DNA of 64,000 nt, from positions 7,998,001-8,062,000 of the forward strand of contig NC_135258.1 in the NCBI RefSeq assembly GCF_964204865.1, written 5' to 3'. Below are positions 11,601 through 45,305 of the stretch, in pieces (position 1 is the first letter of the stretch; the number at the start of each line of letters is the position of its first letter). The stretch is from Styela clava (lineage: Eukaryota). The notes beneath the pieces are model-generated. The model worked only from the letters and a program-made list of their open reading frames with translations. It had not been told where the DNA came from and did not search any database. The position numbers were made by a program, and so were the translations under genes.

Positions 11601-12469
11601 ATCAAATTACAGCTTTAGTTTTAGGGACATGTTTCGTCCGGTCATTCTCAAATCAAAATTTATTTAAACACTAATTGAAATAATTATATGTAAGTTTCCA
11701 TCCCTACGACGTACATAATTACCCGTATTAAGATCTTAAGAGTTTTCTTTATAAAGTGAACCACGAGCTCACGTTTACAGTATTTAATTAAATGTATGAT
11801 CAACGTATAAATACCACTCGATATCTTTCAATGTTAAGCTAGTCTTGAAAAAGTTTTACGAATGTATTCTGTGTATTCTTGAAATCAACGAATAAAAGTA
11901 AATAGAGATTTTCGAACGTAATTTCATTCACGTGGGCGTTGACGCTGAAGGATGAACCGGTGGCTTGTGAGTCTGAGACAGTCTACAAATTAGGGATATC
12001 TGGTGACATCCCATTTATTTGTTATAATACAAGCAACAAGTACAATTTTAATGCGAGTTAGCAACTTGCTATTTTTGATCCCAATAAATCACTATAAAAA
12101 ACTGATATTAGGAAAATATAACAAGGAAGTCGAGACACGAGGCTGCCTAATGCTTGCATTGTAACATTATGTTTACTTACCATTTAACTCCTGAACTTGA
12201 CGTTCAAGCTGTTCGTTTCGTTCAACTAGATCTTCGCAGCAACTACTTGGTGACCCTTTCGGTCCAACTAATCCGCGATTTCCTACTGGACCACGCTTTC
12301 CCGGCGGGCCAGGCGGACCTCTTACGCGAGAAGGGAGTTGGTTTTCGTTCTCATCACATGAAAGCTGACAAGTTCCGAGACTAATACTTGCTTGAGACTT
12401 ACAAGCGAGGTATTGTAAAATAATTAATGTCGCCAAGAAAATTGACTTAGTATTGCCCGTCCACATCAT
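8602..12469 (-). CDS. Ficolin-like lectin copy 1 (short collagen + fibrinogen C-terminal domain), 6 exons, ~313 aa
   Basis: Exons 12469-12181, 11312-11173, 10317-10221, 9583-9487, 9134-9067, 8852-8602. Introns are GT-AG and 942 nt are in frame. Has a signal peptide, 8 Gly-X-Y and the motifs [47 protein letters not shown]. Confidence 0.93.
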
Positions 12470-14661
12470 GTCCGTCTATTGAAATTCACAGGAATGAAAT
12501 ACCAAACGTCACAGAATACTGTTATATATATGACGCATATATAGTAAGCAACTGTTGTTCATCGACTGCTATTTTAATCTATCAAATGCGTCCAAATTCA
12601 TCAAAGACTTTTCGTTACCAAGTACCAGCTAAAGATAGATCTTCTTCCATAAAACCTTAAACCAATGTCAATTTTTTTCCGATCACAGTTGTCAAGATCA
12701 GACAGTTCTCTTCCTCGGTGTTTTGGTAATTAAGGTACGACTACACACTCAAATCTCTAAGGAATATTAATGTTGAGTAATGAAAGTATTTTTGTACATT
12801 TTAATGGCTGATTAATCTGCTATTGAATAGGTGTGTCTGAGAATAATCTCCAAATATACACCAACAACAACAAACTACTGCCGGTCGGTATATCTAACAG
12901 TATAAGGGCATATTTCAAAGAATAATTGAAAAATATAAAAATAAATGAGAATCGGCGACTGTATTTTATAACGAAAAAATAAACAAGTAACTGAAATAAA
13001 AATTGCAGAATGCGACGGGTGGTATCTGTTTACCTACTGAACAAAATGTCCTAAACTTAAACTTTTTTCCCGAGAACTTCAATTATGTAGAATTTACTAC
13101 CTCATAGCTATTTTCCTGGTCGTATTGACGCAAACTGCTACGCGTCAATTGGTATTTACTAACGCGCACTCTCACACAATTAATTATAGCGTCAGTAGCT
13201 CAAGGCATTTTGGTGGTTTTCCGTAGCTTTTCTCGAGGATCATTCTCTTTAATTTCTGAGTGAGTTCTTGTGACCTTGCTTCGATTAAGTATTTTCAAGA
13301 ATAACCTAGCCTTGGGCGAAAGTGGGAACTCTCTACCTAGGGTACCCCTTATTAATTTTAGTGTAATTATTAATTGTAACCGCTAAGACGTATTTGGGCA
13401 TTATTCTCCTGTCGTGGAAAGCACTACTCAGCCTGTATGCATCGAATTCTTGGTCTAGCAAACTATAAACTTTGGGATTCACCGCATTGAGTATGGGGAT
13501 GAGCTATGGTTTACAAACTTTTCACATCGCTGACGTTTTGCTCCATGTGCGATTTATGATCACTAGATGGCAATAGACAGTTTGAGTTATGACTCTGCTT
13601 TCTGTCGCCTTGGTAGTTTAAAAATAAGAATGTACAAATACACAAATATTTATAGATTTATTTACGAATATTTATTATTCTGTGTAGCGACATATATCGG
13701 TAACCCGTGGCATCGATATAACCCTAACCCTGTAACACCCAAACCCTTAGTATGCCCAAATATACAGTAAATCCCTGTATGCGTAATTTTTTATTGTTTT
13801 CAAACGACTCCCGAGACGGAATCAATATATAAATGTATTTAAAATTCCCTTGTGGTAGGCAAAACTTCCGTCCGTGATGATGGTTCGTCTTTGCGTCATT
13901 TTTGCTTTTCTTTGACTTCCGTTTGCAAAGTTCGAATGTTTTTTTCTTTTAAAGACGTCCTGTGTTCATAATTAGATGCTGTGAGCGTTTTTAATGATTC
14001 AAAATGTTTTCTCCTATAGGAATGTTTTTAGATTTCTAGATTTTGTTTAAAACGTAGCTGAACAAGGGCCTTGAAATATAAATTTATAGCTAAGTTCCAC
14101 AAGTAAAGTTATTATTTATTCTCTGTCTTTAATATCAATAGTAACAATAATATTGCAATAATATTGGGTCCACTAAAATCAAACAAAAAGTCAAAAACAA
14201 TAAGAAAAGGGCAGCAGGTGAACAATAGCGAGCAAAAAATAAAATTGATTGATTACATTTAGCAAGGTCGGGAATGCACATTAGCCTTTTTCGTAAAAAA
14301 TGAAAATTTGAGTGGGGCTTATAGCTTTAATTTCAGTAATAGTTCAGTTCATATGATACAATATTGATGATTATATACACATAATTTACGTTTTTCACTA
14401 CAATAACGATAGTACAAATCCGTTCAATTTATAATGACGCGAAAGCTGAACAAAAAAAAATTTTTGTATATTTTACAGAGATATGAATTATGTGTGTACA
14501 ACAATTTTTTGTAAAAAGCTTCATTCATTTAAATATGTCTTTATTATAATTGTCAATAATTATGTACTTAAATATATATTTTCTGGCACATGTACAAAAA
14601 ATTTATTCTAGGAAAGCCATAAATTTACAGTTGAGAGTGTCACTTTGTTATGCTATCGCAC

Positions 14662-14784
14662 CGGCGCATATTAAAAATGTGTGCCAATATGGAGGTAGCT
14701 TATTTTGTTCACCTAATTTACATCAAGTTGCGTAAAGGGACGGAGGAAGCCTGTGGGCAGGGGTACACACACTACCGGAGAACT
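14662..14784 (+). mobile_element. Internally deleted copy of MITE family A
   Basis: ccaatatggaggtagcttattttgttcacctaatttacatcaagttg...ggtacacacactac matches 46673-46880. Confidence 0.65.
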
Positions 14785-15994
14785 GTCGCATCTGCTTAAA
14801 ACGAATCTCAATCGGTGCCACTTCAGTATGCGTTTAACCTCATAAAGACATTCTCATGGAATGCAGTTCCTAACCCTGTGTCATCGCTGAGTTAACAATA
14901 TCTTGAAGGATCTCTCAACTAACTTACTTTGCTGTCGAAGTTATCCAAACTAAATGAGCGCGCAAAATGGTGTTGGAGGAGGCGTAAGAATTTATGTCTT
15001 GCATTAAAATTACGTTACAAGTGTTGAAATATTGTGGAGGGGGAGGGGGTGCATGACCCCCTATCACCCCCTACCACCTGGCAACGCATATATGATCAAC
15101 ATTGATGTGAATCTCATCTATTCGTCCTCCATTATGAACAAAAAAGAAATATATGATGGAATTTGATATATTTGAGGTGAGAAGACTCGAAACAATGCAA
15201 TTTTAATATAATGGCAATAAAAATTCATGCAGAAAATTACGGCTAGTACTATTAGTCTGATATTATTTCACGATAGGCAAACATGATAATCTTGACACAC
15301 ATAAAACATGTATCAGGCAAAACTTGAAATTCCAATAGACTAATAGAGAAAGTATTTATTTGACTGTAGGCTACAACGGGGGTGGCCATAAGGTCGCGCA
15401 CCGAAGTCAAACTCACAATCGGCATCGAAACGTGTATTAGGCGACTCATTCTAATTTTATATAGTTGTCATGATCAATCACAGAAAACTGTGTCTCGGGA
15501 TCGAATATTTTTAAGGTTTTTGTATCTTTAAGATTTACCTTGATGTGCGATTTTATGATCACCCTGTACGTAGATGTTATAAACTATTTTACTTCTATAC
15601 TATTAAAAATCTGGCACGGCTGATTTCCTGATCTTAGTTTCCACAAATTTGGCAAATGGAGTGTATGTATTTTTCCACTTATACCAGGATAAACCCTTGG
15701 CGGATGTGCCTGTGTATAAACCATTCAAGTTAGCGTGGTGACAATAGTTGTACCACCAACCCCCTATGTACGATTCAGCGCAATTTTTTCCTGGGTCCTG
15801 GTCGTTTTCTTGATCCCTCGTCGAAAATTGGTTATTGTTATGGTGAGCCATCGAATCGCCTGTTAATATAAACAACATGATAAATTCAATGACTTGAGGA
15901 TGAGTGCAGTGCGATACATGTTGCTCGAATAAATCGTTATAATGAAGATTGAGGCAACTAAAATTTTGTTGCTGCACATACACACACTATATAC

Positions 15995-16265
15995 CAGGGG
16001 TGTCCAAACGTTTAGGTCTCGTGAGTCCTTTTCCCCTTCCGAAGTCTTTTAGCTCTCATGAATCCTCTGTTTATCATTCCATTATGTTAAACAAATTCAT
16101 GCTCCACAAGATGAAAACACCTTCAGAAATAACCTTAGCAAGCAACGAAAGTAGATAGAACGGGAAGCTTTCTTGTCAAGGCAAAAGTAAGATCAGTTTC
16201 GCGCCTAGCACTGTGGCGCCCTCTAAATGCGAGGCCCCATTGGGTTCCCCGGTTGGTAACCGCTT
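15995..16265. mobile_element. hAT-like non-autonomous insertion in ficolin intron 5 (also 22367-22638 and 28984-29255)
   Basis: Starts CAGGGGTGTCCAAAC and is flanked by ctatatac/ctatataa (8-bp TSD-like). Absent from copies 1, 5 and 6. Confidence 0.6.
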
Positions 16266-16590
16266 CTATATAAATCGAAAAACAGAGTTATTGTCAATTT
16301 TTGATTATAAAAATTATTTTGAGCATTCCTGCATTTCCTGAATATCCGGTAACTGTTATTCGATAATTGTTTTCTGCTCCAGCAATTTGAAATTGTCTGA
16401 AAATTAGAATATTATTTGATATTTAATAATATATAAATATATAGGATATTTTAGATTATTTCCGGATGATTCTACTTGAAACAAATTTGCCATGAACGAT
16501 AACGATCAACAAACGAAAATGTGAAAAAATTTCTAAAACTTCAAATGCTACAACCAATTACTTTGTTACTTTTATGTCTAGAATTCAATA

Positions 16591-16796
16591 TACAGGTCGA
16601 CCAAGAAGTCTTCAAATTTTTCAAAATTGCAAAAGGAATTTATCGATACCATATATTGTTTTGGCCCTCACATGTATTAAACAAAGTAAAAATACCCAAA
16701 CATTTACTGATTAAAATGCAACATACCTGGTTTAAATATATTGAGAACTGTCTTCATAAAATTTGGGTTGTAAAAGGACTTTAAGTACACCCTGTA
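16591..16796. mobile_element. Tc1/mariner-type MITE in ficolin intron 4 (also 22965-23170 and 29582-29787)
   Basis: Ends are TACAGG...CCTGTA with TA flanks. Absent from copies 1, 5 and 6. Confidence 0.6.
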
Positions 16797-17339
16797 TATT
16801 CACACGTAATACTATTAGCAAACTTAAAATGGTAGTTCACTGAATAATCGACCGTTTTGTAAGCCTTTTTACGCTCTTTCATTTTATCAAACACTAAATA
16901 AAGTATACAAAATAATTGGCAGTGCGTAAAGGAAACTTCAATTACCCGTATTTTGCGATTAATTTATCGTTGTCTCTTGTTACAAAGTCGAATCGAATCT
17001 CATGAGGACCATTGGTGGATATTCTATGCATCGTCTCCAGTCCTGTGAAATATAAAGATATCAATAGTTAGTGTTTGGCCAACGTTTCTGAATCGCTGAA
17101 TCGTGTTTTTTCAAATTTGAGAGTCAATTCTAGTCAAGATGTTACGTCAAAGACAAAGTTAGGTAAGCCAGTTAGTTATTGGTTATCCCACATTTTTGAA
17201 CTTAAATCTTGAACAACGGAAGTTTTTTAAACGCCCGAGAACGGTATCGAATCAAATCACTGCATTCCCGAGTCACAAGCCAGGGTCATAATTTAAAAAA
17301 ATGAATTATTTGGAATCTGGTATATTTTGATGGTATTTG

Positions 17340-17429
17340 GGGTGGACCAGAAGTATAATGACAGTTTTGTAACTATTAATAATAATTAAAGTAATTCAAC
17401 ATCAATTGTAATCTACTTCTGGTCCACCC
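17340..17429. mobile_element. 90-bp MITE in ficolin intron 3 (also 23694-23782 and 30311-30399)
   Basis: Perfect 16-bp TIR GGGTGGACCAGAAGTA / TACTTCTGGTCCACCC. Absent from copies 1, 5 and 6. Confidence 0.75.
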
Positions 17430-17839
17430 TTTATATATATATGATAGTCGGATAAACGAATCCGTATTAATAGAAAATTCGAGACAAAACGAGAAATAAC
17501 ATATTGCCTTGATATCCGCGACGCCATCCTCTGTATGACATTATACAAATTTGATTATATTTTAAATACCCAACGCAAAATTATGTTCATAATATTAAGT
17601 ATACCTAGCCAGAATTCTCGTTCTATGTGATCAAAACCTGTGACATAGTCATTCCAGTCACGATAAAAATCCTCGGATCCGTCAAGTCTTCTTTGTATTA
17701 TCTAAACATAAATGAGACAGGTTAATTAAAAAGGAGTTGCGATCGTCAAATTTTAGGGACAACTCAGATGTTTGTATTCTTTCCGTTTGTGTCATAAAAC
17801 GAGCATATGCAATAATATATTATATGGTGAAATTTTTTG

Positions 17840-18000
17840 CGTGGATTGTGACGCATTGGTCTGAAATCTACGGATAAGTGTTAGAACAACGCTTTCCATG
17901 ACACCTCTGATTACACTGCGTGGGTTCGCAGGTTTGAATCCTGTGGATGATTATATGCATAAGTAATCCTTAACTCCTCACCGCCGTATGGTGGTACGGG
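17840..18000 (+). mobile_element. tRNA-derived SINE-like remnant in ficolin intron 2 (homologous pieces in all copies)
   Basis: A-box-like TGACGCATTGG and B-box-like GGTTTGAATCC (17931-17941). Related pieces are at ~10430-10610, 24205-24365, 30820-30980, 36440-36630 and 41770-41965. Confidence 0.55.
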
Positions 18001-18799
18001 GGTACATGAGGGTTATCAAAACTCTACTCACAATCCAACCGCCATCATCGGTTTCTTGATCACAATACACTTGGACACCTTGTATACTTTCATTGAACGG
18101 ATGAATCGCATAAGTTCCACTTGATATCACGTGATTCTTTACCGCTGCACAGTCCCGTGGAAACATCCATTCTAGAAAAAGTAATTGCACTTTTATTATG
18201 CTCCATGCCTGTTTAGATAATTTAAAAAAAAACATAGAAAATGTTTAAATAATAAACTTCCCAAGTCAAAGTATTGTTCTTTGTATCGTATCTAATAACT
18301 AAAAAAATTATTTTTATTTCGTTCTTCCCCATGCAAATAACAATTGCCTGAATGTACAAGCAACAAGTACAATTGTAATGCCGATTAGCTACTTGCAATT
18401 TTTCACTATACTAAACTATATAACAAGTAAATTAAAGTTTTCCAATGTATGCATTGGGACATTTTATAACTTACCATCCAACTCTTGAACTTGACGTTCA
18501 AGCTGTTCGTATCGTTCAACTAAATCTTCGCAGCAAGTACTTGGTGGCCCTGCTGGTTCTATCATTCCGCGAGGTCCTTCTGGGCCGCGCTCTCCAGGTG
18601 GCCCAGGACTTCCTCACAAGCTTCGTCCTCATTACATGAAAGATGACAAATTCCGAGACTAATATTTGCTTGAGTCTTACAAGCAAAGTATTGGAGAATA
18701 ATTAATGCCACCAAGAAAAATGACTTAGTATTGCCCGTCCACATCATGTCCTCTGATGAAATTCACGGGAATAAAATACCAAACGGCCCAGAATAATTG

Positions 18800-18809
18800 C
18801 TTTTATATA
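18800..18809 (-). promoter_or_regulatory. TATA box of ficolin copy 2 (equivalents at 12521-12530, 25214-25223, 31830-31839, 43296-43305)
   Basis: TATATAAAAG ~53 nt upstream of the ATG, at a conserved position across paralogues. Confidence 0.6.
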
Positions 18810-21800: not shown

Positions 21801-21969
21801 GTTTAAACGTGTACGTCAATAGCCAACTCAGTTTAATTTGGATTGTTATCATGATGAATCAGAGACGACTGTCTCAGAATCGAATAATTTCAAAGTTTTT
21901 GTATCTTTGAGATTTACCTTAATGTGCGACTTTATGATTACCCTGTACGTAGATGTTACTTCTATACTA

Positions 21970-24900
21970 TTAAAAATCTGGGACGGCTGATTTCCTGATC
22001 TTAATTTCCACAAATTTGGCAAATGGAGTGTATGTATTTTTCCACTTATACCAGGATAAACCCTCGGCGGATGTGCCTGTGTATAAACCATTCAAGTTAG
22101 CGTGGTGACAATAGTTGTACCACCAACCCCCTATGTACGATTCAGCGCAATTTTTCCCTGGGTCCTGGTCGTTTTCTTGATCCTTTGTCGAAAATTGGTT
22201 ATTGTTATGGTGCGCCATCGAATCGCCTGTTAATATAAACAATATGATAAATTCAATGACTCAAGAACAAGTGCAGTGCGATACATGTTGCTCGAATAAT
22301 TCGTTATAAGAGATGAAGATTGAGGCAACTAAAATTTTGTTGCTGCACATACACATACTATATATACAAGGGGTTTTCAAACGTTTAGGGCTCGTGAGTA
22401 CTTTCCCGCTTCCGGAGTATTTTAACTCTCATGAATCCTCTGTTTATCATTCCATTAAGTTAAACAAATTCATGCTCAACAAGATGAAACCACCTTCAGA
22501 AATAACCTTATCAAGCAACGAAACTAGGTAGAACGGGAAGCTTTCTTGTCAGGGCAGAAGTAAGATCAGTTTCGCGCCTAGCACTGCGGCGCCCTCTAAA
22601 TGCAAGGCCCCATTAGGTTCCCCGGTTGGTAACCGCTGCTATATAAATCGAAAAACAGCGTTATTGTCAATTGTTGATTATAAAAATCATTTTGAGCATA
22701 CCTGCGTTTCCTGAATATCCGGTAATTTTTATTCGATAATTGTCTTCCGCTCCAGCAATTTGAAAATGTCTGAAAATTAGAATATTATTTGATATTTAAT
22801 AATATATAAATGTATAGGATATTTTAGGTTATTTCATGATGATTCTACTTGAAACAAATTTGCCATGAACAATAACGATCAACAAACGAAAATTTGAAAA
22901 AATTTCTAAAACTTCAAATGCTACAACCAATTACCCTGTTACTTTTATGTCTAGAATTCAAATATACAGGGCGACCAAGAAGTCTTCAAATTTTTCAAAA
23001 TTGCAAAAGGAATTTATCGATACCATATATTGTTTTGGCCCTCACATGTATTAAATAAAGTAAAAATACCCAAACAATTACTGATTAAAATACAACAAAC
23101 CTGGTTTAAATATTTTGAGAACTGAATTCATAAAATATAAGTTGTAAAAGAACTTTAAGCACACCCTGTATATTTACACGTAATACCATTAGCAAACTTA
23201 AAATGGTAGTTCACTGAATAATCGACCGTTTTGTAAGTCTTTTTACGCTCTTTCATTTTATCAAAAACTAAATAAAGTATACAAAATATCTGGCAGTGCG
23301 TAAAGGAAATTTCAATTACCCGTATTTTGCAAATAATTTTTTGTTGTCTTTCGTTATAAAGTCGAATCGAATCTCATGAGGACCATTGGTGGATATTCTA
23401 TGCATCGTCTCCAGTCCTGTGAAATATAAAGATATCAATAGTTAGTGTTGGCTGAATCGTGTTTTTTCAACTTTGAGAGTCAATTCTAGTCAAGATGTTA
23501 CGTCAGAGACAAAGTTAGGTGAGCCAGTTAGCTATTGGTTATCCCACATTTCTGAACTTAAATCTCGGACCACGGAAGTTTTTCAAACGCCCGAAAACGG
23601 TATCGAATCAAGTCACTGCATTCCCGTGTCACAAACCAGGGTCGTAATTTGAAAAATAAATTATTTGGAATCTGGTATATTTTATGGTATTTGGGGTGGA
23701 CCAAAGTAGAATGACAGTTTTGTAACTATTAATAATAATTAAAGTAATTTAACATCAATTGTAATCTACTTCTGGTCCACCCTATATATATATATGATAG
23801 TCGGATAAACGAATGCGTATTAATAGAAAATTCGAGACAAGACGAGAAATAACATATTGCCTTGATATCCGCGACACCATCCTCTGTATGACATTATATA
23901 AATTTGATTAAATTTTAAATAACCAACGCATAATTAGGTTCATAATATTAGGTATACCTAGCCAGAATTCTCGTTCTATGTGACCAAAACCTGTGACATA
24001 GTCATTCCAGTCACGATAAAAATCTTCCGATCCGTCAAGTCTTCTTTGTATTACCTTAAAAAAAGAATGTGACAGGTTAATTAAAATGAGTTGCTATCGT
24101 CAAACTTTAGGGACAACTATTCTACTCAGATGTTTGTATTCTTTCCTTTTGTGTCATAAAACGAGCATATGGAATAATATATATTATATGTTTAATTTTT
24201 TTGCGCGGATTGTGACGCATTGGTCTGAAATATACGGCTAGTGTTAGGGCGACGCTTTCCATCGCATCTCTGATTACACTGCGTGGGTTCGCAGGTTTGA
24301 ATCCTGTGGGTGATTATATGCATAAGAATTGCTTAATTCCTCACCGCCGTATGGTGGTACGGGGGTACATGAGGGTTATCAAAACTCTACTCACAATCCA
24401 ACCGCCACCATCGGTTACTTGATCACAATACACTTGGACTCCCTGTTTACTTTCATTGAACGGATGAATCGCATAATTTCCACTTGATATCACGTGATTC
24501 TCTACCGCTGCACAGTCCCGTGGAAACATCCATTCTAGAAAAAGTAATTGCACTTTTATTATGCTCCATGCCTGTTCAGATAATTTAAAAAAAATAGAAA
24601 TTATTGGGAAATTATCTTTACATGTTATCAAGCTATGTTACGAGTATAATAAACTTCCCAAGTCAAAGTATTGTTCTTTGTATCCTATCTAATAACCAAA
24701 AAAATTATATTTATTTCGTTTTTTCCTATGCAAATACCAATTGCCCGAAGGAACAAGCAACAAGTACAATTGCAATGACGATTAGCTACTTGCAATTTAT
24801 CGTTCAGAAAATTCACTATACCAAACTATATAACAAGTAAATTAAAGTTTCCCAATGTATGCATTGGAACATTTTATAACTTACCATCCAACTCTTGAAC

Positions 24901-25161
24901 TTGACGTTCAAGCTGTTCGTATCGTTCAACTAAATCTTCGCAGCAAGTACTTGGTGGCCCTGCTGGTCCTATCATTCCACGAGGTCCTTCTGGGCCGCGC
25001 TCTCCAGGTGGTCCAGGAGGCCCTTCCTTACAAGGTACTTCCTCATTACATGAAAGATGACAAATTCCGAGACTAATACTTGCTTGAGACTTACAAGCAA
25101 AGTATTGGAGAATAATTAATGTCACCAAGAAAAATGACTTAGTATTGCCCGTCCACATCAT
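21970..25161 (-). CDS. Ficolin-like lectin copy 3, 6 exons, ~311 aa
   Basis: Exons 25161-24885, 24534-24395, 24054-23958, 23416-23320, 22769-22702, 22226-21970. Introns are GT-AG and 936 nt are in frame. Confidence 0.93.
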
Positions 25162-26178
25162 GTCCTCTGTTGAATTTCACGGGAATAAAATACCAAACGG
25201 CCCAGAATAATTGCTTTTATATACAACACATTGTATTGGTGCCTCTGCGGTTAAATGAGTCTTAGTAGGCAGTTATGTCACGGCTGTAATGGTAGCAGAA
25301 TGACATGGATATGTCGCTATAAAACACATACACGCGAAAACCTATCTCTAGATCATATTAATTCAACAGGCTATTCACCGTATGCATCACATGTATATAG
25401 CATAAGATCTTGTTTCGTGTTAAAAAGTGCAGCATAGTGATATTTAATCAAATTAGGTCTTTTTAGGGTGTGAAGTATTGCGGTTATTCTTGCAATCTCA
25501 TTAAGACCTATATATCTCCCGATTCAATTAGAACTTGCTGGTGCTGGTGTTTCTGTTTTGAATAATACAAACATTTCATTCTTAATTGACGTTTAATTTA
25601 TTCATTCTCATGCATAACAACATCTATAATATGTTTATCCCCCACAAATATTTTAAAAGTTAGATTTAAGGGGCATCAATATTAGGAATTCGACCTGGGC
25701 AGCAGAACAGTTTGACAAGCCCCTGTCTATAATCCTTTCTACAGACCGATTTTAGAATTGATATCGATTTAGAATCGAATATATTTAATCAAATCGTGTT
25801 GCCGATGCGATGATGCCGAAGAAAAGTTTTTAATCATGATGGACGGTGTGAAATCAATAGCGACGTACTACTCCCGTGACCACAATTTTACGTAAAAATG
25901 TTTGCTTATGACACTTTATTTTTAGCGTATGATGGGTTTAAAATAACCAAGCTCAATTATGATAATCATACAACCACATATTTGGTAACACTGGGGCGAC
26001 GCAATATAGATGTAGCAAAGTGCTTATTCAAATACAAATACACGTTATGCTTTATTTGTGACACATTGCAATAAATTAAGTTAGTGTGCCGAATCTCTTT
26101 TATGTGGTACACTTCTGTGCACTCTATCGACGTGGCATATCTCGGCTGTATATACACTCGTTTGAGAAGCTTTAGACT

Positions 26179-26631
26179 CAGGGATAGTGAACCTGCGGCC
26201 CGCGAACTAATTTGTTACTGTCCACGAACGATCCGAAATTTACGCATAAAACAAAAATTAGTTCTTAATATATTATTGGCTCCACACGGATTTATTTGAT
26301 TACAAGTGATTCTGTACGGCACTTGTTTAGTGGTAAGTAGCGTCAGTTGTATGTCGCTTTTTGATAAACTTCTTTTGTAATTATAATTTAAGTCTAGTTT
26401 GATTTTTAAAATTTGAAAATATCTGGAATACGGAGGGAGGTTTGCCACGAGAGTCAAACATTCCAAAGTTCTTGGACCAAAATTATTTTTCTACTTGCGC
26501 CGTTTAAAACCAGTTTGCTTGATACACCAAGTAGGCATCGCAGTTATTGAGGGATTTAATGTAAAATAACAATACAAAACGTGACATGGCAAATAAGAAA
26601 TTCGATCTCGAGACCCGGGGTTGCGCCACTG
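26179..26631. mobile_element. hAT-like non-autonomous element in the intergenic spacer (also 32796-33255)
   Basis: The 5' end reads CAGGGATGGCGAACTTGCGGCCC in the second copy and the 3' end GTTGCGCCACTG in this copy. The segment is missing from the paralogous spacer near 19880. Confidence 0.45.
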
Positions 26632-28586: not shown

Positions 28587-31500
28587 TTAAAAATCTGGGA
28601 CGGCTGATTTCCTGATCTTAATTTCCACAAATTTGGCAAATGGAGTGTATGTATTTTTCCACTTATACCAGGATAAACCCTCGGCGGATGTGCCTGTGTA
28701 TAAACCATTCAAGTTAGCGTGGTGACAATAGTTGTACCACCAACCCCCTATGTACGATTCAGCGCAATTTTTCCCTGGGTCCTGGTCGTTTTCTTGATCC
28801 TTTGTCGAAAATTGGTTATTGTTATGGTGCGCCATCGAATCGCCTGTTAATATAAACAATATGATAAATTCAATGACTCGAGAACAAGTGCAGTGCGATA
28901 CATGTTGCTCGAATAATTCGTTATAAGAGATGAAGATTGAGGCAACTAAAATTTTGTTGCTGCACATACACTTACTATATATACAAGGGGTTTTCAAACG
29001 TTTAGGGCTCGTGAGTACTTTCCCCCTTACGGAGTATTTTAACTCTCATGAATCCTCTGTTTATCATTCCATTAAGTTAAACAAATTCATGGCCAACAAG
29101 ATGAAACCACCTTCAGAAATAACCTTATCAAGCAACGAAACTAGGTAGAACGGGAAGCTTTCTTGTCAGGGCAGAAGTAAGATCAGTTTCGCGCCTAGCA
29201 CTGCGGCGCCCTCTAAATGCAAGGCCCCATTGGGTTCCCCGGTTGGTAACCGCTGTTATATAAATCGAAAAACAGCGTTATTGTCAATTGTTGATTATAA
29301 AAATCATTTTGAGCATACCTGCGTTTCCTGAATATCCGGTAATTTTTATTCGATAATTGTCTCCCGCTCCAGCAATTTGAAAATGGCTGAAAATTAGAAT
29401 ATTATTTGATATTTAATAATATATAAATGTATAGGATATTTTAGGTTATTTCATGATGATTCTACTTGAAACAAATTTGCCATGAACAATAACGATCAAC
29501 AAACGAAAATTTGAAAAAATTTCTAAAACTTCAAATGCTACAACCAATTACCCTGTTACTTTTATGTCTAGAATTCAAATATACAGGGCGACCAAGAAGT
29601 CTTCAAATTTTTCAAAATTGCAAAAGGAATTTATCGATACCATATATTGTTTTGGCCCTCACATGCATTAAATAAAGTAAAAATACCCAAACAATTACTG
29701 ATTAAAATACAACAAACCTGGTTTAAATATATTGAGAACTGAATTCATAAAATATAAGTTGTAAAAGAACTTTAAGCACACCCTGTATATTTACACGTAA
29801 TAACATTAGCAAACTTAAAATGGTAGTTCACTGAATAATCGACCGTTTTGTAAGTCTTTTTACGCTCTTTCATTTTATCAAATACTAAATAAAGTATACA
29901 AAATATTTGGCAGTGCGTAAAGGAAATTTCAATTACCCGTATTTTGCAAATAATTTTTTGTTGTCTTTTGTTATAAAGTCGAATCGAATCTCATGAGGAC
30001 CATTGGTGGATATTCTATGCATCGTCTCTAGTCCTGTGAAATATAAAGATATCAATAGTTAGTGTTGGCTGAATCGTGTTTTTTCAACTTTGAGAGTCAA
30101 TTCTAGTCAAGATGTTACGTCAGAGACAAAGTTAGGTGAGCCAGTTAGCTATTGGTTATCCCACATTTCTGAACTTAAATCTCGGACCACGGAAGTTTTT
30201 CAAACGCCCGAGAACGGTATCGAATCAAGTCACTGCATTCCCGTGTCACAAACCAGGGTCGTAATTTGAAAAATAAATTATTTGGAATCTGGTATATTTT
30301 ATGATATTTGGGGTGGACCAAAGTAGAATGACAGTTTTGTAACTATTAATAATAATTAAAGTAATTTAACATCAATTGTAATCTACTTCTGGTCCACCCT
30401 ATATATATATATGATAGTCGGATAAACGAATGCGTATTAATAGAAAATTCGAGACAAAACGAGAAATAACATATTGCCTTGATATCCGCGACACCATCCT
30501 CTGTATGACATTATATAAATTTGATTATATTTTAAACAACCAACGCATAATTATGTTTATAATATTAAGTATACCTAGCCAGAATTCTCGTTCTATGTGA
30601 CCAAAACCGGTGACATAGTCATTCCAGTCACGATAAAAATCTTCCGATCCGTCAAGTCTTCTTTGTATTACCTTAAAAAAAGAATGTGACAGGTTAATTA
30701 AAATGAGTTGCGATCGTCAAATTTTAGGGACAACTATTCTACTCAGATGTTTGTATTCTTTTCTTTTGTGTCATAAAACGAGCATATGGAATAATATATT
30801 ATATGTTTAATTTTTTTGCGCGGATTGTGACGCATTGGTCTGAAATCTACGGCTAGTGTTAGGGCGACGCTTTCCATCGCATCTCTGATTACACTGCGTG
30901 GGTTCGCAGGTTTGAATCCTGTGGGTGATTATATGCATAAGAATTGCTTAATTCCTCACCGCCGTATGGTGGTACGGGGGTACATGAGGGTTATCAAAAC
31001 TCTACTCACAATCCAACCGCCACCATCGGTTACTTGATCACAATACACTTGGACTCCCTGTTTACTTTCATTGAACGGATGAATCGCATAATTTCCACTT
31101 GATATCACGTGATTCTTTACCGCTGCACAGTCCCGTGGAAACATCCATTCTAGAAAAAGTAATTGCACTTTTATTATGCTCCATGCCTGTTCAGATAATT
31201 TAAAAAAAAATGGAAATTATTGGGAAATTATCTTTACATGTTATCAAGCTATGTTACGAGTATAATAAACTTCCCAAGTCAAAGTATTGTTCTTTGTATC
31301 CTATCTAATAACCAAAATAATTATATTTATTTCGTTTTTTCCTATGCAAATACCAATTGCCCGAAGGAACAAGCAACAAGTACAATTGCAATGACGATTA
31401 GCTACTTGCAATTTATCGTTCAAAAAATTCACTATACCAAACTATATAACAAGTAAATTAAAGTTTCCCAATGTATGCATTGGAACATTTTATAACTTAC

Positions 31501-31777
31501 CATCCAACTCTTGAACTTGACGTTCAAGCTGTTCGTATCGTTCAACTAAATCTTCGCAGCAAGTACTTGGTGGCCCTGCTGGTCCTATCATTCCACGAGG
31601 TCCTTCTGGGCCGCGCTCTCCAGGTGGTCCAGGAGGCCCTTCCTTACAAGGTACTTCCTCATTACATGGAAGATGACAAATTCCGAGACTAATACTTGCT
31701 TGAGACTTACAAGCAAAGTATTGGAGAATAATTAATGTCACCAAGAAAAATGACTTAGTATTGCCCGTCCACATCAT
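28587..31777 (-). CDS. Ficolin-like lectin copy 4, 6 exons, ~311 aa
   Basis: Exons 31777-31501, 31149-31010, 30671-30575, 30033-29937, 29386-29319, 28843-28587. Introns are GT-AG and 936 nt are in frame. It has 3 amino-acid differences from copy 3. Confidence 0.92.
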
Positions 31778-34737: not shown

Positions 34738-37700
34738 TTAGTTTCTGCGTTTCCGGATCTTCATTTCTACAAATTTTGCAAATGGAGTGTATGAATTTTT
34801 CCACCTAAACCAGGATAAACCCTTGGCCGATGCCGTTGTGTCTGCGTATAAACCATTCAAGTTAGCGTTATGGCACCGATTGTACCACCACCCCCCTTTG
34901 TACGATACAGCGCAATTTTTTCCAGGGTCGTGATCGTTTTCTTGATCCTTCGTCGTAAATTGGTTATTGTTATGGTTTGCCATTGAATCGCCTGTTAAGT
35001 GAAACGACATGATAAATTCAATCACCCAAGAATAAGTGCCGTGCGATACATGTTACTCTATTAAATTGTATCGTTATAAGAGATCGATGAAACTGTTTTA
35101 AACATATACATACTACATTAATTTAATATGTAAAACAGCGCTATTTTCTATTGTTAATTATAATAAATATTTTGAGCATACCAGCATTTCCTGAATATCC
35201 GGTAATTGTTATTCGATAATTTTCTTCTGCCCCAGCAATTTGAAATTGTCTAAACATTAGAAACTTTTGTGAATTTAACACATAAATTGTATTTTTAATC
35301 ACGTAATATTGCTTAAGATGAGTTTACGTGGTGCATATTTGCAAGAAACGAAATGAACAATAAATTGAAGAAATCACTGAAATATCAATTGGTATAACAA
35401 ATTCATAAGTATAAATACTACGGGAGGCTCTTGGCTAGTCTTCGAACTGATAATAGGACTAAAATAAGGAAAATTGGAAAAAAATTATCGCCTAACCCTA
35501 ACCTGTTACCCATGTTACGTTCCGATGTCCGCCATCTTGGTTCGCATACTTTGGGAGCACCCATTTTTATTCCATCCAACTATAAATGGAGCATTGAAAA
35601 TAATTACCCGTATTTTGCAAATATTTTTTCGTTGCCTCTTGTTATAAAATCGAATCGAATTTCATGAAGACCATTGATGGATATTCTGTGCATCGTCTCC
35701 AGTCCTGTAAATTATAAAGATATTGATAGCTAGTGCTTAGCCCTCATTTCTGAACTCAAACCTTGAATCAAGGATTATCTTATTCAGAACCTTGTTTTAT
35801 TGCAACGCTCGAGAACGGATGTGGATTGGAGCCACTTCATTCCCGAGTCACAAGTCAAGTTCAGTCGCAGTCGAGCCAGATTCGGAGTTGATTTTAACAA
35901 AGAGTGAAGTACATAATATTCTTTCTCAGAAAATCTAATTTTGAAATTAAAAATTCAACCGTTTTAGCCCGAAAAAATATTTATGACAGAACACCATTCC
36001 ACTAGTCTATGAAAAAGTGTGTGAAGAAAATGTGAGCTATTAACGTTTATTGACGTACGAATATTCAGAGAACGGAAATCGTTTAGCATATTTTATATGT
36101 TAATGCTGGCTCATTATAAATAGCTGGTCGGATTATCGAATCCTTAACATCACCATAACTTCCGGGACAGTACAAAAAAGATTCTTTTATCATGGACGCC
36201 ACCATGCGCAGAAAAAACTTGAAAATGCCTTTAAGGTGTTATATCTATAAATTCAAGTTGTTCGTCATTTTAAGTATACCTAGCCAGAATTCTTGTTCTT
36301 TGTAACCAAAACCTGTGACATAGTCTTCCCAGTCACGATAAAAATCTTCCGATCCGTCAAGTCTTCTTTGTATTACCTAAAAATGAACGTGACAAGAAAA
36401 ATGATCTTTGATTTGCAATCGTCGACGTTTTTCATCGCTCCTCTGATTTCCCTGCGTGGGTTCGTAAGTTGGAATTCAGCGGCGGATACTTATGTGCCAG
36501 AGAATTACTGAACTCTTTCATCGCCGTAGAGTGGTAACCGTAAAGGTTGGTCGGTTTTGCCTACCTAAAGTTCATATACTTGAAACAAAATAACTGGTAA
36601 CCGGACGAGGAGGCCGTGGTACGCTTCATGACTATAATTTTAAAATGGTCGCAGACGAATTATGTTCCAAAACCTTCAGATTTCTGGATCTGTTCTTGAC
36701 CAACGGCAGTTTAATATCATGAACGGTAGTGTACAGTGTCTAGAGTCTGGACTAGACTAAAGGTTCATGCATCGTTGTTCTGCCTATCTCATTAAAAATA
36801 CATAAATTCTATTACGTGCACTGAGCCCTCTGCACGCAATTATATTGAATAGGTGTATTGAGATACGAAGTAAATGGGATTAAAAATAGAAAAAATGCCA
36901 CACTTGGTTGTTGCTATTCAAGAGTTTTATCTAAACATAGTCACATGGAATTGAGATATATATCAGAATTGCGTATGATAATGATTTCTGTTTGGGCCTC
37001 ATGCTATTGAACTACTAAGTCTTAAATATAGACAGAACGTTTTTCGAATGCACTTACAATCCAACCGCCTCCATCGGTTTCTTGATCACAATACACTTGG
37101 ACTCCTTGTTTACTTTCATTGAACGGATGAATCACGTAAGTTCCACTTGATATCACGTGACTTTTTACCGCTGCACAGTCATGTGGGAATATCCATCCTA
37201 AAAAAATATTGTCACTTATGTTATGTTCCCTGCTTGGTTGAATAATTCAAAAAGTAAGGATGGTTTGGAAAAATAATCTTCACCTGTCATCGAGTTATGT
37301 TACGAATATAAATATACCTTTCAAATCAAAACAATGCTCTTCGAATCTTATTGAAATGTCTAATTATTTGTGTTTCATTTTTTCTTGTACAGATAACAGT
37401 TGTATAAGCAATAGGTACAATTGCAATGTGAGTAAGCTTCTTGTGATTTTTCGCTCAAACAATGCACTATACTAACCTAAGAGTCAGTAAGAGACCATAT
37501 CGAATAAATGCGGACACGAGGCTTTCCAAATGCCCCAATACACTGTAACATTATGTTTACTTACCATTTAACTCCTGAACTTGACGTTCAAGCTGTTCGT
37601 TTCGTTCAACTAGATCTTCACAGCAACTACTTGGTGACCCTTTCGGTCCAACTAATCCGCGATTTCCTACTGGACCGCGCTTTCCCGGTGATCCAGGTGG

Positions 37701-37850
37701 ACCTCTTACGCGTGAAGGGAGCTGGCTCTCGTTCTCATCACATGAAAGCTGACAAGTTCCGAGACTAATACTTGCTTTAGACGTACAAACGAAGTATTGA
37801 AGAATAAGTAATGTCTCCAAGAAAAATGGATTAGTTTTGCCCGCCCTCAT
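34738..37850 (-). CDS. Ficolin-like lectin copy 5, 6 exons, ~313 aa
   Basis: Exons 37850-37565, 37197-37058, 36376-36280, 35704-35608, 35249-35182, 34991-34738. Introns are GT-AG and 942 nt are in frame. Confidence 0.92.
35422..35562 (+). mobile_element. MITE family A-related insertion in intron 4 of ficolin copy 5
   Basis: cttggcta...aaaattatcgcctaaccctaacctg...gggagcaccc. Not present in the other paralogues. Confidence 0.55.
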
Positions 37851-38834
37851 TATCTTCGTCTGGTAGAATTCTGAGCAATAAAATATGAAAGGGCCCAGAA
37901 TAATTGCTTCTATACACTACGCACTGTGTTGATGCTTCCCTGAATAGCAGGTGCGTTTTTGTAGGCAGCTGTTGTTATGTTTAGACTATTTTTTTCCTGT
38001 GAACATCTATCTCTAGGGAATTTCAAGTCGGCAGGCTATTTTACTGTATGTCAAACGTCGTATACCTAGTAGAGAATGTTGTTGAGCGTTTCAGAAATAA
38101 TCAATCAAATTAGGCCTTTGACCTGTGAAGTATTTCGGTTATTCTTGCAATCTCGTTAGGATGTATATACCGCACGATTTAAGTAAAGCGTGACTGCATT
38201 TTCAAAGCATATTTCCCACACAATATAACAACGTTGGGATAAGAGCTGGAGATTGTATTTCTGTTTTGATAAGGAATATTCCAATGTCCTTTTTAAAGAT
38301 GGATTTTACATTTGCTACGTCGAATATATTTAATCAAATCTACTAGCGACTGTTGTTATGCGTAGCGTTTGCAGCTCTCTTTGGGGAATCCCATAGGCCG
38401 CACTGCTTTTGAACATAATAAAAATATTTGTCTCCCTACATATTTCTGACGCGTTATTTTCGCCAATAGTTAGCAGGATGAATTCAATGTCTAGCGGTCT
38501 CTAGAGATCACTATGTATCAAACACATCTTTTGATGTCAATTTGTGAATTTCAGGTGACATGCAAACATATATTTATTTCTTCATTGATTCGTCTTCATT
38601 GAAAAATATCAGCCATCTTGTTTTGAGGTGAATCCCTCAATTTCTTTGTGAATTTCTATTTATGGAATGCATTTATGACATGCGACTTTTCTCTGTTTGG
38701 TGAGTTACTGATAAAACAAGTTTTTTTTGTGTGTGTGACAACTCAATGAACTGACTGAGTGATGGATTCTTTGTCTTCTCTAATTTGTGTGTCTGGAGCA
38801 CTCATTGCAATAAAAAGTCACATTCAATCACGTT

Positions 38835-39413
38835 AAAATTAGCTCCCTCTTGACCGGGACAACATGCTGTTGGTCTTTAATAAATCCCGCCATATGCGAG
38901 TTTTATCGATTTTGCGTCAGATTATCAAAATTCAATCAAAAAATTGACATAATTCTGATTTATTGTTGAAATTTGTGCTAGTTTGCTTACAATCTTTAGT
39001 ACTATATCTTCAATTTGAAATAACAAAATCAGCCACCTCTTGGCGACCAGAACACCTTGCTGCTTGGCTTTGAAAATCACCAAAATCCCCATATGCGAGC
39101 CATGTCAGTTTCACGTCAGTATACCGAAATTCAATAAAAAAAAATTGACATAATCCCAATTTTTTGTTGAAATTGATTCACAATTTTTTCACTATTTTTA
39201 TGACTATATCTCCAATATGAAAATATAAAACCAGTTCCCTCTTAGACAAAACACCATGCTGTTGGGCTTTGAAAATCCCCTGAATTGCCTTACGTCATTT
39301 TGTTTCAGAATACCAAAATTCAGTCGAAAAATTGAATTCATTGAAATTCATTTGCTTCTGCTTACAATCTTTATGATTATATCTTTCATTTGAAATAATG
39401 ATAACATCCCCTC
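38835..39413. repeat. Degenerate ~190-200-bp tandem repeat, ~3 units
   Basis: Unit starts (aaaa..ag..ccctctt) at ~38835, 39025 and 39227. The motifs catgctg..ggctttgaaaatc, aaaattgacataat and actatatcttcaatttgaaa recur. Confidence 0.75.
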
Positions 39414-39975
39414 ACCGGTTCTTTGCTTATATCCGTATATTAATCCGTATATCAATTTCGCTTTGTCAATATTTTTCCGTGTGTGAATGATGTGAATCTC
39501 TTCTATTGGTCCTCCAATATGTAAAGTTGAATTATGTGATGAAAGTTAATATATTTTAGATGAAAATACTCAAAACAAAACAATCACAATATATATATTA
39601 ACAATGAAAACATATACAGATTTTTTTCTGTTAGTAATATTAGTCTGGTAACATGATACTCTTGACACTCATAAAAACATCTAGACACAAATTGACAACT
39701 GAATAGAGCAAGATATTATTTGATTGTACAAAACAGGGCGGCTATAGAGTCGCGAACCAAGGTAACACACACAATCCATAATGACGTCGATGTATGCCGG
39801 ATTTTAGAATGTTATCATGATCAATCAGAAAAAACAATCAAGTTCGAATGATTCCAGGGTTTTGTATCTTTGGAATTTTCATATTTACCTCGGTGCGCAA
39901 TTTTATTGACAACCTGTACGTAGATGGTAGGTATGAACTATATTAATCTATACTATTCAAAATGTGCCACGCTAT

Positions 39976-42900
39976 TTAGTCCCTGCGTTTCCTGATCTTC
40001 ATTTCTACAAATTTGGCAAATGGAGTGTGTGTATTTTTCCACTTATACCAGGATAAACCCTTGGCCGATGTAATGTCTGCGTATAAACCATTCAAGTTGG
40101 CGTAATGGCACCTGTTGTGCCACCACCCCGCTTTGTATACTTCAGCGCAATTTTTTCCCGTGTCTTGGTCGTTTTCCTGATCCATCGTTGAAAATTGGTT
40201 ATTGTTATGGTACGCCATCGAATCGCCTGTTAATAGAAACAACATGAAAAATTCCATCACCCAAGAATAAGTGCAGTACGATACATGTTGCTCGAATAAT
40301 TCGTATCGTTATAAGAGATGGATTGAAAAGCAAGTATATATACATACAAATTCAAGTTTTTAAACATACACATACTATATAAACTGAAAAACAGTGTTAG
40401 TGTCCGTTGTTAATCATAATAATTATTTTGAGTTTACCAGCATTTCCTGAATATCCGGTAATCGTTATTCGATAATTGTCTTCTTTTCCAGCAATTTTAA
40501 ATTGTCTACAAATAAAAAAAAATGTGTCAATTTAATATATAAAAAGTATTTTTATTTCCATTACATTTCTTAAGATGAGTTTACTCGAAGTATATTTGCA
40601 AGAAACGATCATGATCAATGAACGAAAATGTGGAGAAATCACTGAAAAACCAAATTCTACAACAAATTCCTATTGCGGCTTTTACTTTGCAGCCTGAAAT
40701 CTCAATTTATAGTATATGTAAAACTATTGGCACTCTTGAAATGGTTAGTTTACTAAATAATCGGTCGTTTTGTAAGTCTTTTTACGCTCTCTCATTTTAT
40801 CAAAGACTAAATGAAGTACACATGAAATATTTGGCAGTGCGTAAAGAAAACTTCAATTACCCGTATTTTGCGAATAATTTATCGTTGTCTCTTGTTACAA
40901 AGTCGAATCGAATCTCATGAGGACCATTGGTGGATATTCTATGCATCGTCTCTAGTCCTGTGAATTATAAAGACATCGATAGTTAGTGTTCAGCCTATGC
41001 CCCATTTTCAAACCTAAAATCAAGAATTATTTTATTCGAACCCCGCCAAGTTTTTAACGCTTGAGAACGTCGAGCCGAGTCGAACCACTCTATTCCCGAG
41101 TCACAAGTCAAGTTGAGTCGCTCCTTCTTCGCGTCACTTTCTTCGTCCGCAGTCGAGCCAGATTTGTATTAAATTTTGTAACAAAGAGCAAAGTACAGAA
41201 CATTCTTTCTTAGGTTAATCTGATTTTGCATTTAAAAGTTTAGTCGCCTATTGCCCGAAAAAGGTAATTTTGATAGCACGCCATGTTACTGTTCTACAAA
41301 AAGGTGACTGATGAAAATGTATTACATTAACATTTAGTGACGTGTGCATATTTCGAAAAATGGAATTATTTAGAATCTGGTATATTTTAACATTAGCGCA
41401 ATATTACCTCTATATAATTATACTTATTGCCATTATCACCATAACATTCGAGGCAATACAAAAAAGATTATGTAGTCTTGTCATCGTCGACGCCATCATC
41501 AGTATGAAAGTATATAAATTACTTCAATAAACCAACGCAAAATTATGTTCGTAATTTGAAGGATACCTAGCCAGAATTCACGTTCTTTGTAACCGAAACC
41601 TGTGACATAGTCATTCCAGTCACGGTAAAAATCTTCAGTTCCGTCAAGTCTTCTTTGTATTACCTATAAAGTAGTTTGACAAGTAAAATTTACCTTGATT
41701 TGCAATCGTCAAGATTTAAGGGACAATCGTTCACTCAGATGTTTGTAAATTATCCATCTGTCTGAGTGGCGGATAATTATTTGTGTGAGGATTTCTGCAG
41801 TCCTCATCGCCGTAGGGCGGTGCAACGAACTGTTGGTCGGGTTCGCCTACGCTAACCATAAAGTTCATGTATCTGAAAAAATAACTGATAACCGAACGAC
41901 AGGACGTGACCGTGACTGAGCTGTTTACTCTCCGCCGGGGTAAAAATGATGTCGTATATCCTATTTGAGATGGCTTCATAATACACTAGACTAGCATGCT
42001 ACACATGTCGCTGCAGCATAGGGTATTATACGTCATTATTGTATTTTATTGATCGTTCGCATTGCCGTGTTATATTTTGTCACTCAATATGGATTAATCA
42101 TTGTGGAATAAATTGAGCACATTGCAAGCCAGTGACAATCGTATTAGATGAAGTAATTTCGGAATACAGCCTGCTACATACAGGCTGGCCATCTCAGTCG
42201 GAACGTATTTGTCACCTTCAAAGCTTATTTTAAAGGATAAATTCTATTGCGCGGCATTTAATGATAAAATGATGACTTAAAATGATTGTAATAATGTCCT
42301 CAGCGCGCAATCATATTGAACACGTATCTTGAGATACATACAATACACGCTTGTCTTTAATTGCCATAGTTTCGTCTAAGCAAGGTTACATGGAATTGGG
42401 ATATTTATTATATATATATATATGAGAATGGGTTTGATAATAAGTTCTGTTTGTGCCACATGAAACTAGACCACAAATAGTTAAACATGGACAAAAGATC
42501 CCCAAAGATACTACTCACAATCCAACCGCCTCCATCGGTTTCTTGATCACAATACACTTGGACTCCTTGTTTACTTTCATTGAACGGACGAATCACGTAA
42601 GTTCCACTTGATATCACGTGACTTTTTACAGCATCACAGTCCCGTGGAAACATCCATTCTAGAAAAAGTAATTGCACTTTTTTGTGCTTCATGCCTGTTT
42701 AGATAATTTAAAAAACTAAAAAGAGTTTTAAAAATTATCTTTGCGTGTTATCGAGTTATGTTACGAGTCTAAACATACCTTCCAACTTTAGGCGTTGTTC
42801 TTCGAATTTTATAAAATTGTCCAAAATATTGCCGATTAGTTACTTGCAATTTTTCGTCCCAGAATGCATTATACCAAACTCATAATCGTTAGGAAAATAA

Positions 42901-43242
42901 AACAAGAAAATTCCAGTTTTCCAATGATTGCATCGCAATATCTAATACCTTACCAACCAACTCTTGAACTTGACGTTCAAGCTGTTTGTTTCGTTCAACT
43001 GGATCTTTGCAGCAAGTACCTGGTGACCCTGGTGGTCCCACCAATCCGCGGGGCCCTTCTGGGCCGCTCTTTCCCGGTGGTCCACGCGGTCCTGTTACGC
43101 GAGAAGGGAGCTGGCTCTCGTTCTCATCACACGAGAGATGACAAGTTCCGAGACTAATACTTGCTTGAGACTTACAAGTAAAGTACAAGAAAATAATTAA
43201 TGTCGCCAAGAAAAATGAATCAGTTTTTCTCGCCCACATCAT
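39976..43242 (-). CDS. Ficolin-like lectin copy 6, 6 exons, ~313 aa
   Basis: Exons 43242-42954, 42658-42519, 41663-41567, 40957-40861, 40505-40438, 40226-39976. Introns are GT-AG and 942 nt are in frame. It has 9 Gly-X-Y triplets. Confidence 0.93.
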
Positions 43243-44596: not shown

Positions 44597-45305
44597 AAAA
44601 TTAGCTCCCTCTTGACCAGACAACATGCTGCTGGTCTTTGAAAATCCCGCCATATACGAGTTTCGTCAATTTTGCTTCAGATTATCAAAATTAAATCGAA
44701 AAATTGACATAATTTTGAGTTTTTGTTTAATTTATTCTACTTTGCTTACAATCTTTAGAACTATATCTTCAAGTTGAAGTAATAAAATCAACACTCTCTT
44801 GACCGGAAGACCATGCGGCTGGGATTTGAAAATCACCAAAATTGCCATATGCGAGCCGCGTCAGTTTCACGTCAGAATACCAAATATCAATCAAAAAATT
44901 GAAATAATTCCAATTTTTTATTCAAATTGATTCACATTTTTTTTACTATTTTCATGACTATACCTTCAATTTGAAATGATAAAATCAGATCCCTCCTAGA
45001 CAGACATCATGCCGCTGAGGCTTGAAAATCACAAAAATCGCCACGTGCGAGTTACGTCAATTTTGAGTGAGAATATCGAAATTCAATCGAAAAATTAACA
45101 TAATTCTTAGTTTTTTGTTGAAATTGATTCACATTTAATTACTATTTTTATGACTATATCTTCAATTTAGAACAACAAAATCTCTCTTAAACAGGAAACC
45201 ATGCTGCTGGGCTTTGAAAATTCCCTGAACTGTCTTATGGTGGTTAGGTCATTTTGCAAAATTCAGTCGAAAGGTTGTCATAATTCTAAAACATTATTGA
45301 AATTC
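44597..45305. repeat. Second locus of the ~195-bp tandem repeat, ~3.6-4 units
   Basis: Unit starts at ~44597, 44785, 44981 and 45177. The left flank 44380-44597 is homologous to 38610-38835. Confidence 0.75.

Follow-up and report, generated by a model that had tools for sequence, protein, structure and literature searches.

A Styela clava ficolin array divided between a lysine class and a derived glutamate class at the putative MASP-docking position

Introduction

Can a single locus of the ascidian Styela clava encode both ficolins that would recruit MASP proteases and close paralogs that have lost the means to do so? The question is raised by a stretch of 64,000 nucleotides (NCBI RefSeq assembly GCF_964204865.1, contig NC_135258.1, positions 7,998,001 to 8,062,000 of the forward strand), hereafter the window and numbered from its first letter, which carries six tandem ficolin-like copies on its minus strand. 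A sequence-only reading of the window had placed, at one position of the collagen stem, the lysine codon AAG in copy 1 (12296-12298), copy 5 (37680-37682) and copy 6 (43069-43071) and the glutamate codon GAG in copy 2 (18590-18592), copy 3 (25000-25002) and copy 4 (31616-31618); all six codons are as it gave them. It proposed that the lysine copies may bind MASP and that the glutamate copies, as a recently expanded clade, may not activate complement.

The proposal draws on mammalian work. Human MBL that carries K55A or K55E does not bind MASP at all, and binding of BMP-1/mTLL-1 to the K55E form is strongly reduced (PMC5717261); in rat ficolins the lysine is essential, and a glutamate beside it blocks binding in rat ficolin-B (PMC3179595). 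The collagen lysine contacts Glu45, Asp98 and Ser100 of the C1s CUB1 domain, with similar contacts in C1r (PMC4222235). As to ascidians, the recruitment of MASP by ficolins through collagen lysine and CUB is described as unresolved (PMC11312191).

Results

Two classes of ficolin-like gene

A search of the species' own genome found 13 ficolin-like genes with an exon 1 in an array on the contig that we call C10, each modelled with six exons and GT-AG introns. Seven (U1 to U7; C10:7917598-7990207; two lysine, five glutamate) are plus-strand genes upstream of the window, and the other six (W1 to W6, copies 1 to 6) are the minus-strand copies inside it, the two halves converging on a central region. 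The lysine class comprises U1, U7, W1 and W5 (PGKRGP) and W6 (PGKSGP), so that the Hyp-Gly-Lys-X-Gly-Pro motif is present in all five, with hydroxylation of the proline only presumed; all five genes are intact. The glutamate class on C10 comprises U2 to U6, W2, W3 and W4, six of these eight being intact and two, U5 (a frameshift in exon 6) and W2, broken. Outside C10, a dispersed, broken glutamate-class copy lies on C19 (C19:3794198-3808135), and C6 carries a gene of greater distance from the array.

Among the lysine copies of the window, copy 1 (8602..12469, minus strand; exons 12469-12181, 11312-11173, 10317-10221, 9583-9487, 9134-9067 and 8852-8602) encodes 313 residues, its lysine being residue 58 in the third of eight Gly-X-Y triplets; copy 5 (34738..37850, minus) likewise encodes 313 residues, and copy 6 (39976..43242, minus) is intact. 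The intact glutamate copies, copy 3 (21970..25161, minus) and copy 4 (28587..31777, minus), each encode 311 residues with the stem motif PGERGP and are near-duplicates, 95.7% identical across 6.6 kb. Both have a third N-terminal cysteine characteristic of their class, encoded in copy 3 by TGT at 25030..25032, three residues ahead of the collagen, where the lysine copies have CGC for arginine, and in copy 4 at 31646..31648. The models are identical to NCBI Styela clava proteins P0001 (copy 1), P0012 (copy 3), P0017 (copy 4), P0002 (copy 5) and P0004 (copy 6), the last two beginning at the same or the second methionine of the model. Copy 2 (15603..18747, minus), which had been called a pseudogene, is indeed broken in the present assembly, where exon 1 has lost 4 bases and the donor of intron 5 is GA; P0022, a similar protein recorded from another assembly, is intact and has the same CNEDEACEE segment.

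The proteins begin with a hydrophobic N-terminus and, by inspection of the translations, have two cysteines ahead of the collagen in the lysine class and three in the glutamate class. Eight Gly-X-Y triplets follow in all 11 intact copies, then Cys-Cys, a short neck and a fibrinogen domain. Pfam Fibrinogen_C is matched with E-values of 5e-66 (copy 1) and 2e-63 (copy 4), whereas Pfam Collagen scores about 1e-3, under the curated cut-off because the stem is short. The best solved-structure matches of the fibrinogen domain are tenascin-R/C, then FIBCD1, then ficolin-2. A 24-sequence tree leaves the deep forks open and does not settle orthology with vertebrate FCN genes; by their architecture these proteins are ficolins in the ascidian usage of the name. 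The cysteine pattern suggests disulfide-linked oligomers of trimers.

Most copies keep a D-x-x-N-D loop and a Cys-His pair, the latter in all 11 intact copies; the last-loop tyrosine of the vertebrate (axolotl) ficolin is absent from the array copies, as it is from Halocynthia ficolin 2. Residues of this kind would serve the calcium-dependent binding of acetylated sugars. Variation in exon 6 (for example at window 8602-8852 and 21970-22226) clusters beside this presumed ligand site (NSCH, NYCH, NWCH or NRCH; SYK, SYI or EYK), and the glutamate class has two head types in this exon, a pattern that suggests different ligands.

Lysine as the ancestral state

The closest outgroups, the C6 gene (TGKRGP here, AGKRGP in P0028) and P0027 (PGKAGP), share the N-terminal SISLGxCxLSC with the array, and both carry lysine, which rules out glutamate as the ancestral state. 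A full-protein tree took in the 11 intact copies, the two outgroups and 10 proteins of the other assembly but no broken copies; in it all 11 glutamate rows form one derived branch (support 100/99) with W6 as its sister (94/92), as had been supposed for the glutamate copies from the window alone; an exon 1 tree also recovers the glutamate clade (84/99). The single clade rules out independent origins of the glutamate and means that its presence in three copies of the window records one event, not three. Glutamate thus arose once, by a single A-to-G transition from AAG to GAG, and was inherited by the copies. Both classes occur among the proteins of the second assembly as well as in read contigs, and the division is therefore not an assembly artefact.

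That the clade is recently expanded is true of copies 3 and 4, given their identity, but does not extend to the entire class, for the silent-site distance in fibrinogen exons 2-5 is 0.176 among glutamate copies and 0.172 among lysine copies.

The lysine reaches well beyond the array. Among 18 relatives outside it (collagen plus fibrinogen, at most 520 residues and at least four Gly-X-Y triplets), Gly-Lys-X-Gly-Pro is kept in 14, against an average of 3.6 over 10,000 shuffles of the X residues, none of which gave more than 10; conservation exceeds chance, by a significance that is overstated because the 18 rows are related. Named carriers are Halocynthia ficolin-2 (IGKAGP), a Clavelina protein (PGKRGP), an axolotl ficolin-1-like protein (PGKMGP) and six S. 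clava paralogs, a range of two ascidian orders and one vertebrate, and the motif often comes as early as triplet one or two in stems that are very short. PGExGP was found in none of the 18. Gly-Glu-Arg is an ordinary collagen triplet, glutamate standing at X in 29 of the relatives' 207 triplets. Taken together, these comparisons indicate that the motif, common to ascidian and vertebrate ficolins, had the lysine ancestrally and has conserved it.

Class differences beyond the codon

The glutamate does not stand alone. None of the six intact glutamate copies has a lysine in any of its eight triplets, and the collagen charge falls from +4 in the lysine class (+2 in copy 6) to 0. Tails of the form KSAVPDL, KSAVPDF or KSAVPNL replace the basic KRRD-type tail of the lysine class, and the charge losses are spread over stem, neck and tail, leaving the mature glutamate proteins about ten charges more acidic (net -10 to -18, isoelectric point 4.9-5.6) than those of the lysine class (-1 to -4, 6.2-6.7) in the present assembly. 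Amino-acid-changing sites diverge between the classes by 0.195 in the collagen and by 0.05-0.10 in the fibrinogen domain; 16 of 25 class-diagnostic columns fall in residues 35-96, and the class signal sits mainly in stem and tail. W6 is intermediate, for it has the stem residues E62, P64 and T76 in common with the glutamate class, yet keeps the lysine and has two cysteines. Within the six intact glutamate copies the ratio of amino-acid-changing to silent differences (pN/pS) in the collagen is 0.09, a value drawn from few sites and to which gene conversion could contribute.

Transcription

Transcription was inferred solely from contigs of public reads joined exactly across the modelled GT-AG introns, none of the runs being recorded as RNA. 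The glutamate-type joint of exons 1 and 2 (31149/31501, of the copy 4 type) occurs in three of four runs, from two studies; contigs of runs X1 and X6 span the glutamate codon with no mismatch, and for the copy 3 type all five introns are bridged. The lysine-type joint of exons 1 and 2 occurs in one of the four runs. Near-identical copies are indistinguishable in contigs, and contig depth, which is far greater for the glutamate than for the lysine exon 1 in runs that were themselves found with the glutamate exon, is unfit for ranking the expression of genes. The glutamate class is spliced in public runs, in contigs that pass through the glutamate codon itself.

Candidate MASP-type partners

Matches to CUB and to trypsin co-locate on C8, where four genes of CUB-EGF-CUB-CCP-CCP-protease order (M1 to M4, loci L016-L023) lie in about 62 kb (C8:17308600-17370300); when one CUB1 exon was searched against the genome, three of the four came out on top and the fourth was seventh. 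M1 is the NCBI MASP-2-like protein P0036, of which Pfam passes one Sushi stretch, the second CCP being drawn from exon comparison. Aligned to human MASP-1, P0036 keeps E77, Y89, D90, D136 and S138 of CUB1 and E261, H263, Y270, D271 and D312 of CUB2, residues of the sort with which C1s and C1r hold the collagen lysine (PMC4222235). M3 and M4 also keep the acidic CUB residues; M1, M3 and M4 all have the MASP domain order, the catalytic triad and the acidic calcium residues. None of the four genes has an arginine directly ahead of the protease domain (M3 ESQIAGG, M4 DSQIIAG, M1 VAAVVRG), unlike the arginine activation site of mammalian MASPs. Two more protease-domain genes in the cluster (C8:17350400-17357230, L021) show no CUB exon, and one of them has the catalytic motif GASGA.

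The fourth gene, M2 (C8:17325810-17334265, plus strand, loci L018-L019), is a full-length, open-frame paralog in which GDGGG stands for GDSGG, glycine replacing the catalytic serine. Its CUB1 has FNLKELQ for FDVEDSY (glutamate to lysine) and YNF for YDY (aspartate to asparagine) and has lost the DxS loop, while its CUB2 keeps the acidic residues and has lost the tyrosine. The ratio of amino-acid-changing to silent substitution rates (dN/dS) between M2 and M3 is 0.15 over 626 codons, which points to a maintained pseudoprotease, possibly a complement regulator; CUB1 is the fastest-changing part of M2 (0.29).

Prediction of a complex between three copy-1 stems (residues 44-97) and the CUB1-EGF-CUB2 portion of P0036, with calcium, scored 0.00 in each of two runs and had no folded control, so that the result speaks neither for nor against docking.

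Relics and neighbouring genes

An orphan exon 2 fragment (965..1045, plus) is a remnant of the opposite-strand half of the array, and orphan relics of exon 4 and exon 6 lie inside the array at C10:7935031-7935467, 7958363-7958633 and 7975337-7975770. Exons 2-6 of U7 are duplicated without exon 1 at C10:7991876-7994634 (L009), with 99.9% identity over 3.76 kb, which is due either to duplication of very recent date or to an artefact of assembly. At the centre of the array, where its halves converge, is a multi-exon gene (window 3511-6795, plus) whose motifs LRSLYYPP, GEHTDFG, VNIGD and RQSIVYF we take to be of 2-oxoglutarate/Fe(II) dioxygenase type; searches of Pfam and PDB with its single exons gave no match. 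A rhodopsin-family G-protein-coupled receptor gene (window 53970-58563, plus) matches Pfam 7tm_1 on two exons, and a tandem repeat of period 196 and 2.7 copies lies at window 44648-45182, with a related block at 38651-39335.

Discussion

We lean toward a reading in which the ancestral lysine class docks MASP and the derived glutamate class has lost that docking. By analogy with mammalian proteins, three chains would form a short triple helix, with trimers linked through their N-terminal disulfides; the side chain of the lysine class would enter among the calcium-binding acidic residues of CUB1 and CUB2, and the docked MASP would be carried to its target, leading to C3 cleavage. The stem of the glutamate class is uncharged, and the acidic side chain that it bears would be repelled from the CUB site. 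Such proteins could still bind or clump targets through their fibrinogen heads, with complement not started, and might compete with the lysine copies where ligands overlap. The extra cysteine of the class likely alters oligomer assembly and may, as a weak inference, favour glutamate-only over mixed multimers. The sequence-only reading had suggested that the glutamate proteins might be opsonin-only. Such a role clashes with mammalian CR1, whose site on the MBL collagen coincides, or nearly so, with that of the proteases (PMC5845983), and we reject it as the default. An agglutinin or a competitor fits better. The tuning of hetero-oligomers, suggested in the same reading, gains no support from our results.

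Several points weigh against this loss of docking. Its mechanism rests on mammalian data, and the role of ascidian ficolins in complement is described as unclear (PMC11312191). The glutamate is only one of the 25 class-diagnostic alignment columns (four lysine versus six intact glutamate copies), and the between-class pN/pS of the stem, 0.52, means that positive selection at the site is not demonstrated. The broken copies, two of the eight on C10 and that on C19 against none of the five lysine genes, could reflect relaxed constraint. A tree of the fibrinogen domain alone yields two glutamate subclades, united in 18% of bootstrap trees, and an exon-6 tree does not group the glutamate copies as one clade apart from the outgroup, although a single clade is not rejected (approximately unbiased test, p-AU 0.24). 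The fibrinogen domain is, moreover, nearer to tenascin (E-value 3e-61) than to human ficolin-2 (3e-48). As for the motif itself, the 18 relatives are not independent, six being S. clava paralogs and seven unnamed, and four lack it, among them a Clavelina protein with arginine for the lysine (PGRRGP) and a sponge protein. The residue after the lysine, arginine or serine in the array, is unlike the aliphatic residue typical of mammals; this caveat, raised at the outset, is weaker than feared, since arginine follows the lysine in a Clavelina protein too (PGKRGP), and S, T or P does so in other relatives.

The alternative that survives best, unlikely in our estimation, is that ascidian MASPs dock outside the lysine motif, for example at the helical neck as proposed for GBL, and that both classes recruit them. 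Ascidian GBL, in which a coiled coil replaces the collagen, associates with MASP nonetheless (PMC8605247), a collagen-less amphioxus ficolin interacts with MASP1/3 (PMC11312191), and the neck after the Cys-Cys is similar in both classes. Docking of this kind leaves unexplained why GKxGP persists in most of the relatives and why three Styela MASPs conserve their acidic CUB residues. The idea that the lysine is the MASP contact accordingly draws support from the K55E mutant (PMC5717261) and from these MASPs and is qualified by the two associations that need no collagen.

Rather unlikely, too, is that selection favoured acidity in general and another kind of oligomer in the glutamate class, giving perhaps less sticking to polyanions or larger agglutinating multimers, with any effect on MASP a by-product or neither class binding it. 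The shift in mature net charge and the neutral collagen of the class are what this would produce; against it, the stem of copy 6 is already partly less basic with the lysine kept, and distant relatives conserve the lysine whatever their charge. Selection for acidity and loss of MASP docking are partly compatible.

It is tempting to go further and speculate that a conserved, transcribed, lysine-less ficolin clade and a conserved, protease-dead MASP with the opposite charge change in CUB1 form a decoy arm of the lectin pathway, at its boldest a charge-swapped pair that binds targets and does not start complement; we regard this as distinctly improbable. Hardly probable, in turn, is neutral birth and death, in which a glutamate fixed by drift spread to further copies through tandem duplication and gene conversion and has no distinct role. 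One transition is enough for this, Gly-Glu-Arg is common in collagen, the fibrinogen domain has over 100 matches genome-wide, which implies redundancy, and three of the nine glutamate copies (that on C19 included) are broken; yet the glutamate stem is conserved, an effect that gene conversion could mimic in part, both classes occur in a second assembly and two studies have runs with spliced glutamate transcripts. Least credible is that the glutamate class docks M2 itself, through the lysine that replaces a calcium-binding glutamate in CUB1, in a parallel non-activating or regulatory complex: all M2 exons are open and its dN/dS against M3 is low, but its CUB1, the fastest-changing part of the protein, has lost three of four calcium ligands and resembles site loss rather than a precise swap, its CUB2 keeps the acidic residues, the M2/M3 silent divergence of about 1.4 against a pS of 0.2-0.37 between the ficolin classes makes M2 probably the older, and the genes are unlinked.

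Several known proteins resemble parts of the system. Halocynthia roretzi ficolin 2 (Q95P99) has a short GKxGP collagen, a helical neck and a fibrinogen domain about 50% identical to that of copy 1, but has five triplets rather than eight and another N-terminal cysteine pattern, and is not sister to the array in the tree. Vertebrate ficolins (FCN1-3; axolotl ficolin-1-like P0137) share the cysteine segment, collagen, fibrinogen domain and GKxGP and have much longer stems. The MBL K55E mutant has exactly this substitution at exactly this place in the motif; it is engineered, has a C-type lectin head and a long collagen, and was paired with human proteases. A parallel to the glutamate class is ficolin-B, a natural paralog with a glutamate at the motif thought to block MASP docking and an activating paralog beside it (PMC3179595). 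There, however, the lysine stays, its neighbour is the glutamate and one gene is concerned, whereas in the array the glutamate takes the place of the lysine, does so in eight genes in tandem and is accompanied by other changes specific to the class. Later work reportedly found some MASP association of native mouse ficolin-B.

Non-activating paralogs are already known, from mouse ficolin-B, and the Styela variant would be a moderate surprise. The S. clava genome paper counts 54 ficolin genes as an expansion and leaves MASP unmentioned in its main text, as far as the passages cited here go (PMC7540406), and a review of tunicate immunity lists ficolins and MASPs and, in the part cited, not the lysine/glutamate division (PMC5465252). 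A literature search, with most subscription journals outside its coverage, found no report of a lysine/glutamate split in ficolins or of a dead ascidian MASP.

Nature provides a test set in this locus: nearly identical paralogs that have or lack the lysine, the intermediate copy 6 and MASPs with intact and with degenerate CUB domains. Should docking have been lost as we suppose, the handshake between collagen lysine and CUB would predate vertebrates, and activating and non-activating soluble receptors would be paired at one locus. A filter-feeder would then have multiplied its non-activating recognition proteins, perhaps as a way of handling microbes without complement.

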